This document shows positions 5,753-18,039 of a DNA stretch of 64,000 nucleotides, one piece after another (the first letter of the stretch is position 1; the number at the start of each line of letters is the position of its first letter). The stretch spans positions 1 through 64,000 of IMG/VR virus record IMGVR_UViG_3300033121_000981, one strand, 5' to 3'. This DNA is from a virus. A model generated the notes under the pieces. It did no database searches, was not told where the DNA came from, and saw only the letters and a list, made by a program, of their open reading frames with translations. Made by a program: the position numbers and the translations under genes.

Positions 5753-5834
5753 TTAAACAATATAACTATTATATACACGTTTATTTAATAAATCAAGAAT
5801 TATTTTCACTTTTTAAAATTGCTTCTAAATCGAT
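5753..5834. repeat. about 80-bp direct repeat, right copy flanking the GC-rich island; contains early promoter copy 2 (TTGATT-17-TATAAT at 5768-5796)
   Basis: matches 5177-5257. Confidence 0.7.
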
Positions 5835-6846: not shown

Positions 6847-6875
6847 AGTATATACACGTTTATTTAATAAATCAA
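6847..6875 (-). promoter_or_regulatory. early promoter cassette copy 3, TTGATT-17-TATACT
   Basis: sequence match to the other copies. Confidence 0.6.
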
Positions 6876-7109
6876 GTATTTTCTTTATAAATTCCTTTAT
6901 CATTCTCATTTTTCCATTCCTTGCAAAAAAGCCTTGACAAACTTTTAAATTGCACTATTCCAGAATGTTTTGTGATGACAACATAATAAGCACCTTGTTT
7001 TTTAATTTCGTAGAATTCTTTATTGTCAAGCATTTTCTTTTCCTAAATTTACATTATTTAATACTAAAATTCGATAATTTTTCGCAGTAATTCTGCGCGT
7101 GTTTTTGTT

Positions 7110-8215: not shown

Positions 8216-8244
8216 ATTATATACACTTTTATTTATTTTGTAAA
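8216..8244 (-). promoter_or_regulatory. early promoter cassette copy 4, TTTACA-17-TATAAT
   Basis: sequence match. Confidence 0.55.
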
Positions 8245-8786
8245 GAATTATTAACATAATATAAAGCATCCCCATTTTGTTTTACAGCTTCTAAACATAT
8301 TTCTTCTGTTTGTTCCTTAACATACCATAAAGCATAACCATTTTGTTTAACAGCTGCTAAACATATTTCTTCTGTTTGTTCCTTAACATACCATAAAGCA
8401 TAACCATTTTGTTTAACAGCTGCTAAACATATTTCTTCTGTTTGTTCCTTAACATCCTTTAAAGCATAACCGTTTTGTTTTACAGCTTCTAAACATATTT
8501 CTTCTGTTTGTTCCTTAACATGCTCTAAAGCATAACCGTTTTGTTTTACAGCTTCTAAACATATTTCTTCTGTTTGTTCCTTGACATCCTTTAAAGCATA
8601 ACCATTTCGTTTAACAGCTTCTAAACATATTTCTTCTGTTTGTTCCTTAACACACTCTAAAGCATATCCGTTTTGTCTAACAGCTGCTAAACATATTTCT
8701 TCTGTTTGATTCTCAACATACTTTAAAGCAAACCCCTCTTGTTTAACAGCTGCTAAAGCCTCTTGTTCATTAGTGAAATATTTCAT
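8229..8786 (-). CDS. DUF4116-type tandem-repeat protein, about 8 x 20-aa repeats (EQTEEICLEAVKQNGYALKDVK)
   Basis: obvious 20-aa periodicity; 60-bp DNA repeats. Confidence 0.8.
   Translation of the reverse strand: MKYFTNEQEALAAVKQEGFALKYVENQTEEICLAAVRQNGYALECVKEQTEEICLEAVKRNGYALKDVKEQTEEICLEAVKQNGYALEHVKEQTEEICLEAVKQNGYALKDVKEQTEEICLAAVKQNGYALWYVKEQTEEICLAAVKQNGYALWYVKEQTEEICLEAVKQNGDALYYVNNSLQNK
8270..8770. repeat. about 8 tandem copies of a 60-bp unit, coding and in frame, inside CDS 8229-8786
   Basis: near-identical copies, e.g. TTGTTCCTTAACATACCATAAAGCATAACCATTTTGTTTAACAGCTGCTAAACATATTTCTTCTG. Confidence 0.8.
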
Positions 8787-8822: not shown

Positions 8823-8851
8823 ATTATATACACGTTTATTTAATAAATCAA
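8823..8851 (-). promoter_or_regulatory. early promoter cassette copy 5, TTGATT-17-TATAAT
   Basis: sequence match. Confidence 0.6.
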
Positions 8852-9267
8852 GCATTATTCAATTTATTTCTATGTTTATGAGAAGCACCAATTTTAGCCG
8901 CGCACATTGTCACAGCTGCTACAGTGCGCCCCAATTGTCTAGCACACTCAACCCTGCCAAGAATTTTATAATTTCCTTTCAAGAAAATTATCTCATCATC
9001 TTTCCATTTTGTGCTATTTGTTAAATTAACAAAATTTTGACATTTTCCTGCTTTTCGCATCGCATTGCGCTGGTTTGTTAATTTTTCAATCGCGCCAATT
9101 TGCATTAAATAATGTGGCAAATTATAACTAGAAAGCCAATTTTCTAGCATACTGATATCGGTGCGTAATAATTTAGCAGCGTGCTCATTGCTGTATTCAA
9201 TTTCAGAAATTAATTTTTGAAGCTTTTTACTAAAATCTATCATTTCATTTTCCTTTGTTTTGTCCAA
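8848..9267 (-). CDS. hypothetical protein, possible C-terminal HTH
   Basis: ORF track. Confidence 0.5.
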   Translation of the reverse strand: MDKTKENEMIDFSKKLQKLISEIEYSNEHAAKLLRTDISMLENWLSSYNLPHYLMQIGAIEKLTNQRNAMRKAGKCQNFVNLTNSTKWKDDEIIFLKGNYKILGRVECARQLGRTVAAVTMCAAKIGASHKHRNKLNNA

Positions 9268-9455
9268 AAAGGATCAAAAGCGAATGGGCATTCGTACATC
9301 ATGCGCCCGTCAATATTGCTTATAAAAGTACTTCGTGCTTGGTTTTTGTGCCGCTTCAAAATCTCGCGGGTTTTTTGTGTTGCTGGAAAGTAAAGATCTG
9401 ACTGCCAATTACTGCACTCAATACCCGCTGCAATCAAGTCTTCATAAATTGTCAT
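9240..9455 (-). CDS. hypothetical protein
   Basis: ORF track. Confidence 0.45.
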   Translation of the reverse strand: MTIYEDLIAAGIECSNWQSDLYFPATQKTREILKRHKNQARSTFISNIDGRMMYECPFAFDPFWTKQRKMK

Positions 9456-9780
9456 TTTTAGTTCCTTTCAAAATTAATTAATAGAGTAGATATTATTACA
9501 TACAGAATAAATATGTACAACATATTTTTAAGAATTTATGAAAATAATTTATAAAATGTTATCAATAAATACATAAAACGATTTAAACGGCCCATATTCA
9601 ATTTAAATATTTACCCTAACCCTACTATTAAATTTATTTTTAAATCGATTATAGAGCGTTTTGACAAGCCTATTTTAAGTATGTATTGTATAAATTACAT
9701 TTAATAATTTTCTTGACAAAATGCGAAATATATGATGCATGCAAACTATAAGCGTGTGTCCCGCCAGGGACCATGCAAAC

Positions 9781-9810
9781 TATAAAAATAGTTTACACAA
9801 ATTTAAAATT
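9781..9810 (+). promoter_or_regulatory. sigma70-like promoter TTTACA-18-TATAAT in a non-coding region
   Basis: no plus-strand ORF downstream; followed by hairpins. Confidence 0.5.
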
Positions 9811-9884
9811 GTGTGTATAATAGCTGCATTGATACAACAAACTATCAATATGACAATTTAAGCAGCGACGAGAGGCGCAACCCT

Positions 9885-9914
9885 GCTGGGTGCGCTTGAC
9901 TACAATCTTTAGCG
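9885..9914 (+). promoter_or_regulatory. second tandem promoter, TTGACT-18-TATAAA
   Basis: seen directly. Confidence 0.5.
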
Positions 9915-10149
9915 TTAAGTATAAATTTAATGTTATTTTTTGAATGTAAGTAGCCCTTGCGCGTAATATTTATACGTTGATTTTTACGTAGCTACTGTTA
10001 CGCCTAAAATTATTTTATTGCTTTATTAGCAAGATATTGTAATATCGATAATATTAATAAATTATTAATGTTTCATTTTTGGAAACGTTTTTGCTTATTT
10101 TGATATTACTAAATTTGGATACCAAAAATCCTATAAGAAGGTTTAAAAA

Positions 10150-10330
10150 ATTCGGGTGAAATCTAGGAAATTCCAAATTCCTAGAAATGCTGAATTCCAA
10201 AATTCAAAATGGTAAATTTTCTTAAAATTTAAATTTATGAAAAGCCACATAATGTAAAATTCCGTGGCCAAATTTGGAATTATTTTCAAATCCTTGTTTG
10301 GATTTCATTTTTAAATTATTTAAAATTCCA
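10150..10330. repeat. iteron-like repeats of AAATTCCAAA (four or more copies) plus palindromes CCAAATTTGG and TCAAATCCTTGTTTGGATTTCA
   Basis: seen directly; AT-rich region. Confidence 0.5.
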
Positions 10331-10349
10331 AAATTAATATTTAGCAAAT

Positions 10350-11483
10350 TTACTTAATATCAAAACGTTTATCTAGTGCTTTAGTATAATCTTGTAATAG
10401 ATATATTTTATATTTTTCTTTACAATCATTCCAAGATGCTTTGACATTAATGTTCTTCTTTTTAGCATTAAACAAAACAGCAGAATAACGGAGTTTACAG
10501 AACTCGTCGGCTAGCTCTTTTTGTGTTGAACAGGTGTTGTTGAGATAATTATATGTACTAGCCATAGATTCCATAAGATAATTGAATCCTCTTATATATG
10601 GCTCAAACAAAAACCTATCGTCTGGAAAATAATTTAAATACTCTTCATGTTCTCCTGAAATAACTAATTGGCATATCCTTTTCGGTGAAATACCTTCACC
10701 CTTCATATGATGTACAGCTACATAAGTTGGACTTTTTATTTTACAGATAGGAACACCATTTTGATATAACACATACCCTTCATCAAGGTTTTTTAATGTT
10801 TTAACATGATTTAAACATTCGTCTATTGATTTAAATATGTATTGTTTTGGGATAATAGCGCCTAAATCTTCCCAGATAAAATCTAAATTCCAATATTCCC
10901 CAGTTTTTATATCTCTGGATGTCAAATAGTATAAACTACACCCATCGTACCGTTTAATCACTCTATTTTCTGGACTAACTACTTCCAATATGTGAGTATC
11001 TTTCTTTGAAAAATGCTTTTCACAGCTTTCTTGGAACTGTTTCTCAGACCAATTTAAAGATTTCAATACAAGCTCTTTATAAGTAATATCAAATCCATTT
11101 ACCGTTGTCTCTGCAAAAGCTGTACCTCTTGTGGATATTCTCCACTCATTGCCCCAATGGTAGATTTTAATTAAACTTCCGTCAATTTTCTCAAAACACT
11201 TTGTATTAGAAAAATATAACCCATTTAATGTCTCTGATTGTTCCCCATAATTAAAGAACCTATCAAACCCTCTTGATACAACATTATAATTTTTACTGTC
11301 AAGAATAAGCCCCCTACATTCCATAACAATTGGATGTGTTTTTGGGCTGTGAATTTGATCATAATTTAAAACAAGCAAACCCTCATCATATTGTTTCACT
11401 TTAATATGAAAGTTATCCTCTAAGGTTTTTATTCCATGTTCTTTTAAATATTCAATTGTTTTCATGTATTTTGAGCTTTCCAT
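10350..11483 (-). CDS. rnlA: RNA ligase 1 (T4 Rnl1-like)
   Basis: motifs ECRG, FFNYGE, KIDGSL (nucleotidyl-transferase motif I) and EGYV...CKIKS match T4 Rnl1 in order; 377 aa against 374 aa. Confidence 0.88.
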   Translation of the reverse strand: MESSKYMKTIEYLKEHGIKTLEDNFHIKVKQYDEGLLVLNYDQIHSPKTHPIVMECRGLILDSKNYNVVSRGFDRFFNYGEQSETLNGLYFSNTKCFEKIDGSLIKIYHWGNEWRISTRGTAFAETTVNGFDITYKELVLKSLNWSEKQFQESCEKHFSKKDTHILEVVSPENRVIKRYDGCSLYYLTSRDIKTGEYWNLDFIWEDLGAIIPKQYIFKSIDECLNHVKTLKNLDEGYVLYQNGVPICKIKSPTYVAVHHMKGEGISPKRICQLVISGEHEEYLNYFPDDRFLFEPYIRGFNYLMESMASTYNYLNNTCSTQKELADEFCKLRYSAVLFNAKKKNINVKASWNDCKEKYKIYLLQDYTKALDKRFDIK

Positions 11484-15478: not shown

Positions 15479-16831
15479 ATGACACTATACCAACTTATCA
15501 CTTTAATCAGGGAAACACAAGGACACACAAATAAACTCACACTTATGCGTCAGCATAAAGATAATGAACTGTTTAAAAATTACATGCAAGCTGTGTATGA
15601 TCCCACTTTAAATTACTATCTTACTAAGCTTCCTAAGTATGATAAAACTCTAATAGAAAAAGAAGTTGCACTTGAGTTCACTCAAGATACTTTGAGTTCA
15701 TTAATGAAGCTTGCTACAAGACAAATTACAGGTAATAAGGCTAAACAATTTTTGTCCAAGTTACTATGTTATTTGAATGATGAAGGTAGGGAGCTAGTTG
15801 GGTATATTATCCGCAGGAATATAAATGGAAATGTCGGTGATGGTATGGTGCTTAAAGTATGGCCTGAGCTGTTCTTTATTCCTCCATATATGCGTTGTTC
15901 TTTATTGAATGAGAATACAAAGAAACATTTCTCTTCTTTGCCTAGATTTTATGTACAAGAAAAAGTGGATGGTTCTTTTATATACTTAATTGTGCCTGAA
16001 AACAGTCCATCAGAGGCTCTTACAAGAGCAGGAAATGTATATCCTCATTGGTTCTCTTCTATGTTAATTAAGGGTGAAAAAGTAAATCATTGGGGTAAAG
16101 TTCTAATTGGGGAATGTTTAGTTTACAACCAATTCAATATTTTGCTACCAAGACAAGAGGGTAATGGGGTTTTAAATAGTATTCTACATGGGGGATTAAA
16201 AGAGGAGTTTGAAAATTATAGATTTTTAATGGTAGTTTGGGATAAGGTTACTATAGATCAATTTTATAATGGTTACTCAAGTATAGCTTATAAGTTTAGG
16301 TTTGATGGGATTAGGCTTGGGGATAATCCTAATTTAATTAAAGTTAGTTCATATCAAACAGATAGTCTTGAAAAGGCTTTTAACATTTATTCTACATATA
16401 CTTCTTTAGGTAAAGAGGGTGTAGTTATTAAAGACCCTGACAGTGTTTGGAAAGACTACACATCACCTTATAATGTTAAATTAAAACTAACGTTTGAAAT
16501 AGATTTAGAGGTTATTTGCACATATGAAGGTCAAGGTAAAGCTGCTGGTATGTTAGGTGGATTAGTTGTACAATCAAAAGATGGTAGAGTAAACTGTTGT
16601 GTTGGGACAGGGTTTACTGATAAAATACGTAAAGAATTATGGAGCAGCAAAGAGGACATTATTGGTAAAATTGTCACAGTTAAAGCGAATGATGTTATAA
16701 CTGATAAAAACCAATGGAAAACTAAAAGCTTATTTCTACCAGTATTTGTAGAGTTACGTAATGATAAAACTGAGGCGGATAGCTTTGAGCATATTATGAA
16801 TCAATTAGAAGCTGCTAAACAAGGAAAATAA
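15479..16831 (+). CDS. ATP-dependent DNA ligase
   Basis: motif I KVDGSF, C-terminal OB-domain GTGFTD as in T7-type ligases, 450 aa. Confidence 0.8.
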   Translation: MTLYQLITLIRETQGHTNKLTLMRQHKDNELFKNYMQAVYDPTLNYYLTKLPKYDKTLIEKEVALEFTQDTLSSLMKLATRQITGNKAKQFLSKLLCYLNDEGRELVGYIIRRNINGNVGDGMVLKVWPELFFIPPYMRCSLLNENTKKHFSSLPRFYVQEKVDGSFIYLIVPENSPSEALTRAGNVYPHWFSSMLIKGEKVNHWGKVLIGECLVYNQFNILLPRQEGNGVLNSILHGGLKEEFENYRFLMVVWDKVTIDQFYNGYSSIAYKFRFDGIRLGDNPNLIKVSSYQTDSLEKAFNIYSTYTSLGKEGVVIKDPDSVWKDYTSPYNVKLKLTFEIDLEVICTYEGQGKAAGMLGGLVVQSKDGRVNCCVGTGFTDKIRKELWSSKEDIIGKIVTVKANDVITDKNQWKTKSLFLPVFVELRNDKTEADSFEHIMNQLEAAKQGK

Positions 16832-17046: not shown

Positions 17047-18039
17047 ATGAAGGGTACTATTAGAACTATGACAACATTTAAACCATATCCAAGTATTTCA
17101 CAATTCAGAAATGTTATTAAAAGGGTTGTAGATCAGGCTCAGTTTGTAGCAATAGCACCGCCAACACTTACATACAAAGGTACCGTAAAGCTACACGGAA
17201 CTAATGCCTGCATTCATAAAAGTAAACAAGGAGAATATTCTTTTCAATCAAGGAATAGACTTATTACTAAAGAATATGATAATTGTGGATTTGTTCATGA
17301 AATGTCTCAGAAACCTTTAAAGGAATTGTTTAAAGGTTTTGATGGAAAAGATGTTTACATATATGGAGAGTGGTGCGGAACAGGTATCCAAAAGAACGTA
17401 GCTATTTCACAGCTACCTAAAATGTTTGTAGTTTTTGAAGTAATTGTGGACGGTGTTAAACTTGTACAAATTGAAAATATTAAACTTCCAGAACATAGAA
17501 TTTTTAATGTAAATCAATTCCAAACATTTACCCTTGATATTGATTTTAACAATCCACAAAAGGTTCAAAATAAGTTGATTGAAATAACTACTCAAGTGGA
17601 ATCTAAATGCCCTGTAGCAGCTTTCTTTGGTGTAGAAGGGATTGGTGAAGGTGTTGTGTGGAGTCTTGCTGAAAGTTGCAGTAATTTTAAAATAGGTGAC
17701 AGCGAATTAACTTTCAAAGTGAAGGGAGAGGAACATTCAACAACTAAAGTAAAAACATTAGCTGCGGTTGATGTAGAACTTTTAAATTCTATTGCAGATT
17801 TTATTGATACTGCAGTTACAGAGCAAAGATTACAACAAGCTATCTCTTATATGAAAGAAATGCAGATTAGTATTGACAGTAAAAATACTGGAGAGTTTGT
17901 AAGGTGGGTTTATAGAGATATTATGAAGGAAGAGTCAGATGTGATTGATAGCTCAAACTTAGATACTAAAACGTTAGGATTTCATATTAGTAAACATGCT
18001 AAGTTTTGGTTCTTTAAATATTTGGAGCAAAGTAAATGA
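17047..18039 (+). CDS. RNA ligase 2 (T4 Rnl2-like)
   Basis: motif I KLHGTN, GEWCGTGIQKNV matches T4 Rnl2 GEFAGPGIQKNV; 330 aa against 334 aa. Confidence 0.85.
   Translation: MKGTIRTMTTFKPYPSISQFRNVIKRVVDQAQFVAIAPPTLTYKGTVKLHGTNACIHKSKQGEYSFQSRNRLITKEYDNCGFVHEMSQKPLKELFKGFDGKDVYIYGEWCGTGIQKNVAISQLPKMFVVFEVIVDGVKLVQIENIKLPEHRIFNVNQFQTFTLDIDFNNPQKVQNKLIEITTQVESKCPVAAFFGVEGIGEGVVWSLAESCSNFKIGDSELTFKVKGEEHSTTKVKTLAAVDVELLNSIADFIDTAVTEQRLQQAISYMKEMQISIDSKNTGEFVRWVYRDIMKEESDVIDSSNLDTKTLGFHISKHAKFWFFKYLEQSK

Follow-up and report, generated by a model that had tools for sequence, protein, structure and literature searches.

To our knowledge, the small RNAs (sRNAs) of phages that have been characterised are few and come mostly from temperate phages. 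Lambda OOP, P22 sar and P1 c4 are cis-antisense RNAs. At the primary replication origin of T7, an AT-rich region follows the promoters phi1.1A and 1.1B, T4 oriF and oriG are R-loop origins, and the early promoters of T4-type phages possess a GTTTAC-type -35 sequence, the -10 sequence TATAAT and an A/T-rich upstream region. The lambda sRNA LPR1/PreS regulates the host gene dnaN (bioRxiv 10.1101/2024.10.31.621285). Here, these systems are compared with a non-coding gap of 894 nucleotides (nt) in the IMG/VR virus record IMGVR_UViG_3300033121_000981, of which positions 1 to 64,000 were analysed (referred to below as the window). An earlier note on this DNA had described the gap as a candidate replication origin or non-coding RNA (ncRNA) locus. 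From the analyses presented here, it appears likely that the central part of the gap constitutes an independent gene encoding a small structured RNA, expressed from the plus strand against the direction of the neighbouring genes.

Relatives of the locus and the promoter of the candidate gene

Relatives were obtained from public assemblies by way of the 90% protein cluster of the RNA ligase encoded next to the gap, followed by exact look-ups leading to the contigs, or, in the case of L109, by way of the downstream 131-amino-acid (aa) protein. Four distinct relatives, designated L002, L005, L006 and L109, were compared with the window, L109 being left out of some analyses. L001 and L004 are identical to the window, and L003 is identical to L002 across the RNA gene. 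Over the gap, the four relatives are 76-90% identical to the window, and the divergence is a mosaic. The RNA ligase gene rnl1 shows 95-99.7% identity, the downstream gene ~89%, the segments 9531-9660 and 10130-10210 each 92-100%, 10130-10204 taken by itself 93-100%, and the RNA region 84-96%, which makes it the most diverged of the conserved blocks. Close relatives were not detected in INPHARED by megablast or in IMG/VR by searches with two flanking proteins and two DNA patterns, which yielded chance matches only. One candidate, P0121, was discarded as a relative; it proved to be a peptide of 45 aa that had been clustered wrongly and stems from an unrelated bacterial locus.

The gap is surrounded by small early-type genes that form a block on the minus strand. 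No other stretch of the window free of open reading frames (ORFs) of at least 60 aa is as long, the runner-up measuring 299 nt. No ORF of at least 22 aa common to the window, L002, L005 and L006 was found in the gap, and a mini-ORF of the window, AUG-ACA-AUU-UAA, is not present in these three relatives. Protein-coding potential was not detected in the RNA gene, as is required of an sRNA gene, and the earlier statement that the gap contains no plausible ORF was thus borne out.

On sequence evidence, the candidate gene possesses a promoter of its own, TTTACA-18-TATAAT, starting at 9792. It matches the consensus at 11 of 12 positions, or at all 12 if TTTACA is accepted as a -35 match, and, counted in the latter way, it is the only full match on the plus strand of the early region (4-14 kb). 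Taken as a class, promoter-like sites show no enrichment here (22 versus 17.6 +/- 4.5 expected), so consensus matches alone prove nothing, and it is conservation alone that singles out this site. Both hexamers are unchanged throughout the five sequences, in contrast to the spacer, where 7-9 of 18 bases differ. When both strands of the gap were searched for conserved promoters, only this promoter and a weak extended -10 site around 9500 were obtained.

The strong sigma-70-type promoters of the early region are found on the minus strand upstream of genes, at 8851, 8244, 6875, 6535, 5796 and 5686. The promoter at 9792 has GTGTATAAT and an 'a-N5-ATTG' start region in common with these six, and the early promoters including the one at 9792 show GTGTATATAAT-like -10 regions. 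A blastn search of INPHARED for distant relatives gave short matches only, among them ~40 nt over the promoter in four records of T4-like phages. In the one that was inspected, H11, the match (88-89% identity) is an intergenic site just upstream of a small gene; of the three further records, one has the match within an annotated denB gene. The shared early-promoter features, together with the match upstream of a T4-like gene, suggest that the promoter at 9792 is a normal early promoter of this phage, oriented the 'wrong' way, with only the predicted RNA to transcribe. Three of the six minus-strand promoters coincide with near-identical copies of a repeat of ~37 nt, CTTGATTTATTAAATAAACGTGTATATAAT. 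The copies are on the minus strand (8823-8859, 5768-5804 and 6849-6883), each upstream of minus-strand genes, and look like a family of strong early promoters.

Fold, strand and termination of the predicted RNA

The pairing test was applied to an alignment of 120 columns (9826-9945) with three specified helices comprising 25 base pairs, in four sequences and then in five with L109. Standard pairing was observed in all 100 cells of the four sequences and, after addition of L109, in 124 of 125 (99.2%), so that pairs are kept nonetheless in the most diverged of the conserved blocks. Four pairs are altered on both sides and six on one side via G·U. As controls, shuffled 3' partners reached the observed pairing or covariation score in 0-4 of 500 trials, and sliding the partners by 1-3 columns reduced pairing to 27-44%. 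Compensatory changes indicative of a conserved structure are therefore present, among five closely related sequences; the earlier note had named covariance with related phages as a way to check the locus, and this check came out positive.

The changes are distributed over all three hairpins. In hairpin 1, one pair is changed on both sides (U-A to G-C), and one A·C mismatch occurs in L109. Hairpin 2 shows three double-sided changes in L006, A-U to U-A and two C-G to U-A, and two changes via G·U. In hairpin 3, four pairs vary on one side with pairing always kept. Hairpins 1 and 2 correspond to the two stem-loops described earlier, ATTGATA/TATCAAT and a GC-rich hairpin, both of which exist and both of which covary. 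The coordinates assigned to elements within 9727-9885 at that time were, throughout, ~11-12 nt too low.

Three observations bear on the strand. In the four-sequence count, 19 of 100 cells are G·U, which would become A·C in the complementary strand; the fold is thus open to the plus strand only. For hairpin 3, folding of the plus strand yields -7.5 to -10.3 kcal/mol, compared with 0 kcal/mol for the minus strand, and the folding z-score of the whole RNA segment is -2.8 on the plus versus -0.2 on the minus strand. Therefore, the structure belongs to a plus-strand RNA, the strand read by the promoter at 9792. Variable columns are more frequent in paired than in unpaired positions (15 of 50 versus 9 of 70), and no variation was seen in the loop of hairpin 1, ACAACAAAC, or in the linkers ACAAUUUAAGCAG and ACAAUCUUUA. 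Such a combination of variable stems and invariant single strands is expected if pairing is all that is required of the stems and the single strands engage in sequence-specific contacts.

At its 3' end, the predicted RNA shows the arrangement of an intrinsic terminator, an 11-bp hairpin directly followed by six U's. It is this segment for which a second plus-strand promoter had been claimed, with TTGACT at 9896-9901 as -35 and TATAAA at 9920-9925 as -10. The claimed site overlaps two of the covarying RNA hairpins, and its -10 sequence is TGTAAA in L005 and L006. It was therefore reinterpreted as part of the terminator hairpin. Thus, of the two consecutive sigma-70-like promoters described earlier, the first was confirmed by its invariant hexamers and the second was not. 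Taken together, the conserved early-class promoter, the covarying hairpins, two noticed before and a third then read as a promoter, and the fold confined to the plus strand support the ncRNA locus proposed in the earlier note.

A long-range helix between 9862-9874 and 9953-9965, obtained by minimum free energy folding and alifold, was rejected. It contains A·C mismatches at different positions in the window, L006 and L109, none of which is compensated. Another sequence was noted in passing. The RNA segment 9847-9865 carries AAUAUGACAAUUUAAGCAG, which resembles, in sense orientation, the start of the mRNA of the 71-aa ORF, AAAAUGACAAUUUAUGAAG (9440-9458). Since the AUG is missing in L002, L005 and L006, the likeness is probably a coincidence or the result of a local duplication.

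A possible course of events can be outlined from these features. Host RNA polymerase with sigma-70 would start at the strong early-type promoter (9792-9821) and produce an RNA of ~114 nt (~9828-9941), with one hairpin at the 5' end, a second that is GC-rich and bulged, and a third that is AU-rich and followed by six U's, and transcription would most likely stop at this third hairpin. Because ACAACAAAC, ACAAUUUAAGCAG and ACAAUCUUUA are better conserved than the stems, these loops and linkers would be the likely working surfaces, pairing with mRNAs or binding a protein such as Hfq. The layout, with a 5' hairpin, conserved single strands, an AU-rich linker and a terminator with a U tail, resembles that of base-pairing sRNAs. 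Production of the RNA, its exact ends and an action by base-pairing are what we infer from this arrangement.

Several results weigh against this interpretation. The stem of hairpin 3 is rich in AU and GU pairs, with one G-C pair in the window, and fails the GC criterion of the terminator scan, which missed it for this reason. It may terminate weakly, leaving the 3' end uncertain, and conservation extends 31 nt beyond the U-run. The start regions of the phage genes were no better in complementarity or duplex formation than for shuffled seeds, and the longest exact complements to the RNA in the phage, 11-13 nt, are at chance level or on untranscribed strands. A covariance model of the RNA, R1, found no copy in 80 loci of distant RNA ligase relatives or elsewhere in the window, and pattern scans of IMG/VR and GTDB gave chance matches only (nine in GTDB). 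Finally, with only five distinct sequences, all from one narrow clade, the covariation events are few and related, and the shuffle control should not be read as a probability.

Alternative explanations and the other elements of the gap

R1 detected a single copy in the window and in each of the close relatives, with 135-152 bits. The 80 distant loci were collected from JGI metagenomes by a profile search for the RNA ligase, and none exceeds 53% identity. In the 34 with enough flanking sequence, the next ORF begins within 120 nt after rnl1, and in at least eight of these it is an overlapping polynucleotide kinase-phosphatase (Pnkp) gene. Examples with PF25109 and AAA_33 domains and an overlap of 4-8 nt are L010:4208-5074, L013:5083-5946 and L029:5113-5991. 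From these comparisons, the non-coding region with the RNA gene appears to be peculiar to a small clade and to be placed where pnkp usually lies, with no recognisable pnkp remnant. Searches with Rfam 15 gave no match at gathering thresholds in the window, the gap producing sub-threshold noise (E 0.4-9), and ARAGORN predicted neither tRNA nor tmRNA in the window. The candidate accordingly matches no Rfam family, and phage-encoded sRNAs as a kind are already known.

A role in cis, directed against read-through from the converging RNA ligase operon, is a serious alternative, although we consider it unlikely. In that case, the promoter facing the operon would serve to stop read-through transcription by collision of polymerases, or to have the read-through RNA cleaved by RNase III in a perfect duplex, similarly to lambda OOP or P22 sar. 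The downstream genes would thereby be uncoupled from the operon, without any target of the RNA in trans. Transcription from 9792 does converge with rnl1, and the searches of the phage start regions revealed no trans target. Moreover, no strong minus-strand promoter is located between ~13795 and 8851, so that the genes at 9455-8848 may need read-through or the weak extended -10 promoter, and L006 is devoid of the module carrying the rnl1 terminator. On the other hand, selection clearly maintains a plus-strand fold, as seen from the G·U-mediated changes and the three double changes in hairpin 2, and plain promoter interference needs no such fold. The single-stranded segments are also more conserved than the stems, suggesting sequence-specific contacts. 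The two explanations overlap, since an RNA must be made for a cis role too.

A replication origin, as considered earlier, appears quite improbable. Transcription from the plus-strand promoter would activate or prime replication in the adjacent AT-rich DNA, in the manner of the T7 primary origin or T4 oriF/oriG, and the AATTCCAAA repeats or the palindromes would bind an initiator. Consistent with this, no other non-coding stretch is as large, and the GC content outside the RNA gene is 20-25%. A helicase-primase-like protein and a family A polymerase are among the phage's own gene products, the AATTCCAAA copies cluster, perfect palindromes are present, and the conserved blocks at 9531-9660 and 10130-10210 are without an explained function. 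On account of these blocks, the former taken at its full extent of 9470-9740, a small probability is retained for an origin or for sites bound by proteins. However, the transcript is predicted to end at the conserved hairpin with its U-run and not to enter AT-rich DNA. The DNA directly past the promoter exceeds the rest of the gap in both GC content (37%) and structure and is not an unwinding element, and the following ~150 nt (9973-10129) are not conserved but exist as two unrelated alleles. Where an origin of the T7 type has tandem promoters for a phage RNA polymerase and a conserved AT-rich region directly downstream, the gap has one conserved promoter of the host sigma-70 type, a structured RNA and then sequence with 49-60% identity in L002 and L005. 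The turning point of the cumulative GC skew is not at the gap but at ~14 kb, the site of divergence of the gene strands, an observation that is not decisive for a phage.

The repeats themselves were examined as well. Seven copies of AATTCCAAA are present in the window versus 2.1 expected by chance, a number reached in none of 100 shuffles, and four of them, three direct and one inverted, cluster within 164 nt (10169-10332). The four or more iterons described earlier are thus real as a cluster beyond chance, but the repeats are short (9-10 nt), irregularly spaced (24, about 80 and 51 nt) and not conserved. L002 and L005 have AATTACAAA in place of the first copy, and L006 lacks two copies. Origins of the iteron type would show at least three regular and conserved direct repeats of ~17-22 bp beside an initiator gene; the neighbours here are an RNA ligase gene and small ORFs, none of them an initiator gene. 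Of the exact 10-mer AAATTCCAAA, the gap contains only two copies; with one mismatch allowed, it is found 24 times in the window versus 18 +/- 5, i.e. it is not enriched. The perfect palindromes had been reported correctly, CCAAATTTGG being present at 10268-10277. With one promoter, a terminator and repeats that are not conserved, the proposed T7-like origin layout received no positive support.

It is equally doubtful that the RNA has replaced Pnkp in the slot after rnl1 and is tied to RNA damage and repair, for example as a decoy or regulator countering a host defence that cleaves RNA and not as a usual regulator pairing with mRNAs, or that the RNA gene and the two conserved blocks together form a transcription-dependent origin of a new layout. 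That the gap is the remnant of a decayed gene such as pnkp, with promoter and hairpins arisen by chance, is very improbable and largely refuted: a Pnkp gene of ~870-990 nt, similar in length to the gap, follows rnl1 in at least eight of the 34 distant relatives, but tblastn detected no Pnkp-like sequence in the gap or the 64-kb window (best E ~1-8, on the wrong strand), and the constrained blocks, the structure-preserving substitutions and the invariant promoter hexamers speak against decay.

Apart from the small RNA gene, the gap would be a mosaic of terminator-like hairpins of rnl1, a palindrome block, an AT-rich block upstream of a minus-strand gene, and variable or optional insertions (Table 1). 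The AT-rich block folds no better than shuffled sequences on either strand (z = -1.1 and -0.2). Within it, TGTAATAAT of the weak minus-strand site is retained in four of four aligned sequences, and this site is a weak candidate for a promoter of the downstream genes. The direct repeat CATGCAAACTATAA (copies at 9738-9751 and 9772-9785) and the hairpin GTCCC-GCCA-GGGAC (9758-9771) exist as described earlier, but they are strain-specific, occurring in the window and L109 and missing from L002, L005 and L006. A 16-nt match of this insertion at 147-162 lies within an ORF and was treated as chance. In the variable spacer, L002 and L005 are the relatives with 49-60% identity, and L006 reaches 81% over 10076-10129. 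The palindrome block could represent a site of protein binding or else, within the 3' region of rnl1, an RNA hairpin. The optional module contains a terminator-like hairpin of rnl1, GCCAC...GTGGC followed by UUUUC (10269-10237, minus strand). Direct repeats of AATTCCAAAATT at 10193-10204 and 10324-10335 flank a module of 131 nt, and L006 is without exactly that module, which points either to a deletion by recombination between the repeats or to a small inserted module carrying the rnl1 terminator.

Table 1. Positions of predicted and observed features in and around the non-coding gap
Feature	Position	Strand	Description
Small-RNA promoter	9792-9821	+	TTTACA (9792-9797), 18-nt spacer, TATAAT (9816-9821); hexamers invariant
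Predicted small RNA	9828-9941	+	~114 nt; 5' end placed from the -10 sequence, 3' end from the U-run
Hairpin 1	9828-9849	+	Core pairs 9831-9834 with 9843-9846; 7-bp stem in the window; loop ACAACAAAC invariant
Hairpin 2	9873-9897	+	10 pairs, bulged A, loop UGCU, -11 to -16 kcal/mol
Hairpin 3 and U-run	9910-9941	+	11 AU/GU-rich pairs (9910-9935), UUUUUU (9936-9941); likely intrinsic terminator
Conserved segment after the U-run	9942-9972		31 nt, GAATGTAAGTAGCCCTTGCGCGTAATATTTA, 87-100% identity
Non-coding gap	9456-10349		Between the stop of rnl1 (10350) and the start of the 71-aa ORF (9455), both on the minus strand
AT-rich conserved block	9470-9740		20% GC; core 9531-9660 92-100% identical; flanked by the small-RNA promoter and the next gene on the minus strand
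Weak candidate promoter of downstream minus-strand genes	9492-9521	-	TTGTAC-17-AATAAT, TG upstream, extended -10 TGTAATAAT
Direct repeat around a hairpin	9738-9785		CATGCAAACTATAA twice, around GTCCC-GCCA-GGGAC; strain-specific insertion of ~34-35 nt just upstream of the -35
Variable spacer	9973-10129		Sequence of the window and L109 differs from L002, L005 and L006; 25-nt insertion in the window and L109
Conserved palindrome block	10130-10210		TCTAGGAA (10162-10169)-N8-TTCCTAGA (10178-10185), perfect palindrome; TGAATT-CCAA-AATTCA (10190-10205); 92-100% identity
AATTCCAAA copies (formerly 'iterons')	10169-10332		Plus strand at 10169, 10193 and 10324; minus strand at 10273-10281
Optional two-hairpin module	10205-10322	-	Missing in L006; bounded by the 12-nt repeat AATTCCAAAATT

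The RNA ligase encoded next to the gap (377 aa, 10350-11483, minus strand) is of the T4 Rnl1 type (PF09511, E = 2e-19). On the other side, the 71-aa ORF (9240-9455, minus strand) is polymorphic. It is missing in L002 and L006, where the gap directly abuts a 129-aa gene, and L109 has a 72-aa ORF in its place, a match in position that does not imply homology. The window has a GC content of ~32-34%, and its genes are arranged in three strand blocks. By its polymerase, the nearest cultured relative of the phage is Pseudomonas phage vB_PsaM_M1 with 42% identity. Since the replication proteins include a DnaB-type helicase with a weak match to the N-terminal part of the T7 helicase-primase and a family A polymerase, the earlier remark on a T7-type replisome is roughly right. 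Two further ligases are encoded on the plus strand at 15479-16831 and 17047-18039, an ATP-dependent DNA ligase (PF14743, with a sub-threshold match to PF01068) and a member of the 'RNA_ligase' family PF09414, an unusually rich set for a window without Pnkp. A 185-aa protein (8229-8786, minus strand) contains six DUF4116 repeats encoded by tandem units of 66 nt, and relatives produce a ladder of offset BLAST matches with it.

The candidate sRNA gene comes from an uncultivated phage clade of ~32% GC and stands beside RNA-repair genes. It is concrete enough to be tested as an RNA gene, and its covariance model can be used to search for relatives. It also corrects a plausible assignment as an origin: in place of the supposed tandem promoters, there are one promoter and a terminator, and the supposed iteron field consists of repeats that are not conserved. 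Until host and targets are known, the practical impact will be modest.

Comparison with known systems

With a layout that in silico lacks coding sequence and combines a conserved promoter, a conserved strand-specific fold and a hairpin with U-run, the locus was compared with four kinds of described elements. The T7 primary origin and T4 oriF/oriG likewise have a promoter reading into non-coding, partly AT-rich DNA in phages with replisome genes of their own. In contrast, the window has a single conserved early promoter of the host sigma-70 type and a transcript predicted to be structured and terminated, and its AT-rich DNA is not conserved. The promoter at 9792 shares with T4-type early promoters the GTTTAC-type -35, the TATAAT -10 and the A/T-rich upstream region. 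The likeness concerns the promoter only, as it is predicted to drive a non-coding RNA and not an early protein gene.

Lambda OOP, P22 sar and P1 c4 resemble the predicted RNA as short structured RNAs with a terminator that oppose neighbouring genes in an operon-like array. Unlike them, it overlaps no annotated gene on the opposite strand and would be antisense only to read-through across the gap. Base-pairing sRNAs of the Hfq type, e.g. LPR1/PreS, differ in that the predicted RNA of the window has no sequence or Rfam match, carries an unusually AU/GU-rich terminator stem, and belongs to an uncultivated and putatively lytic phage. They share with it a sigma-70 promoter of their own, the absence of an ORF, a size of about 100 nt, a 5' hairpin, conserved single strands between the hairpins, and an AU-rich linker followed by a 3' hairpin with a U-run.

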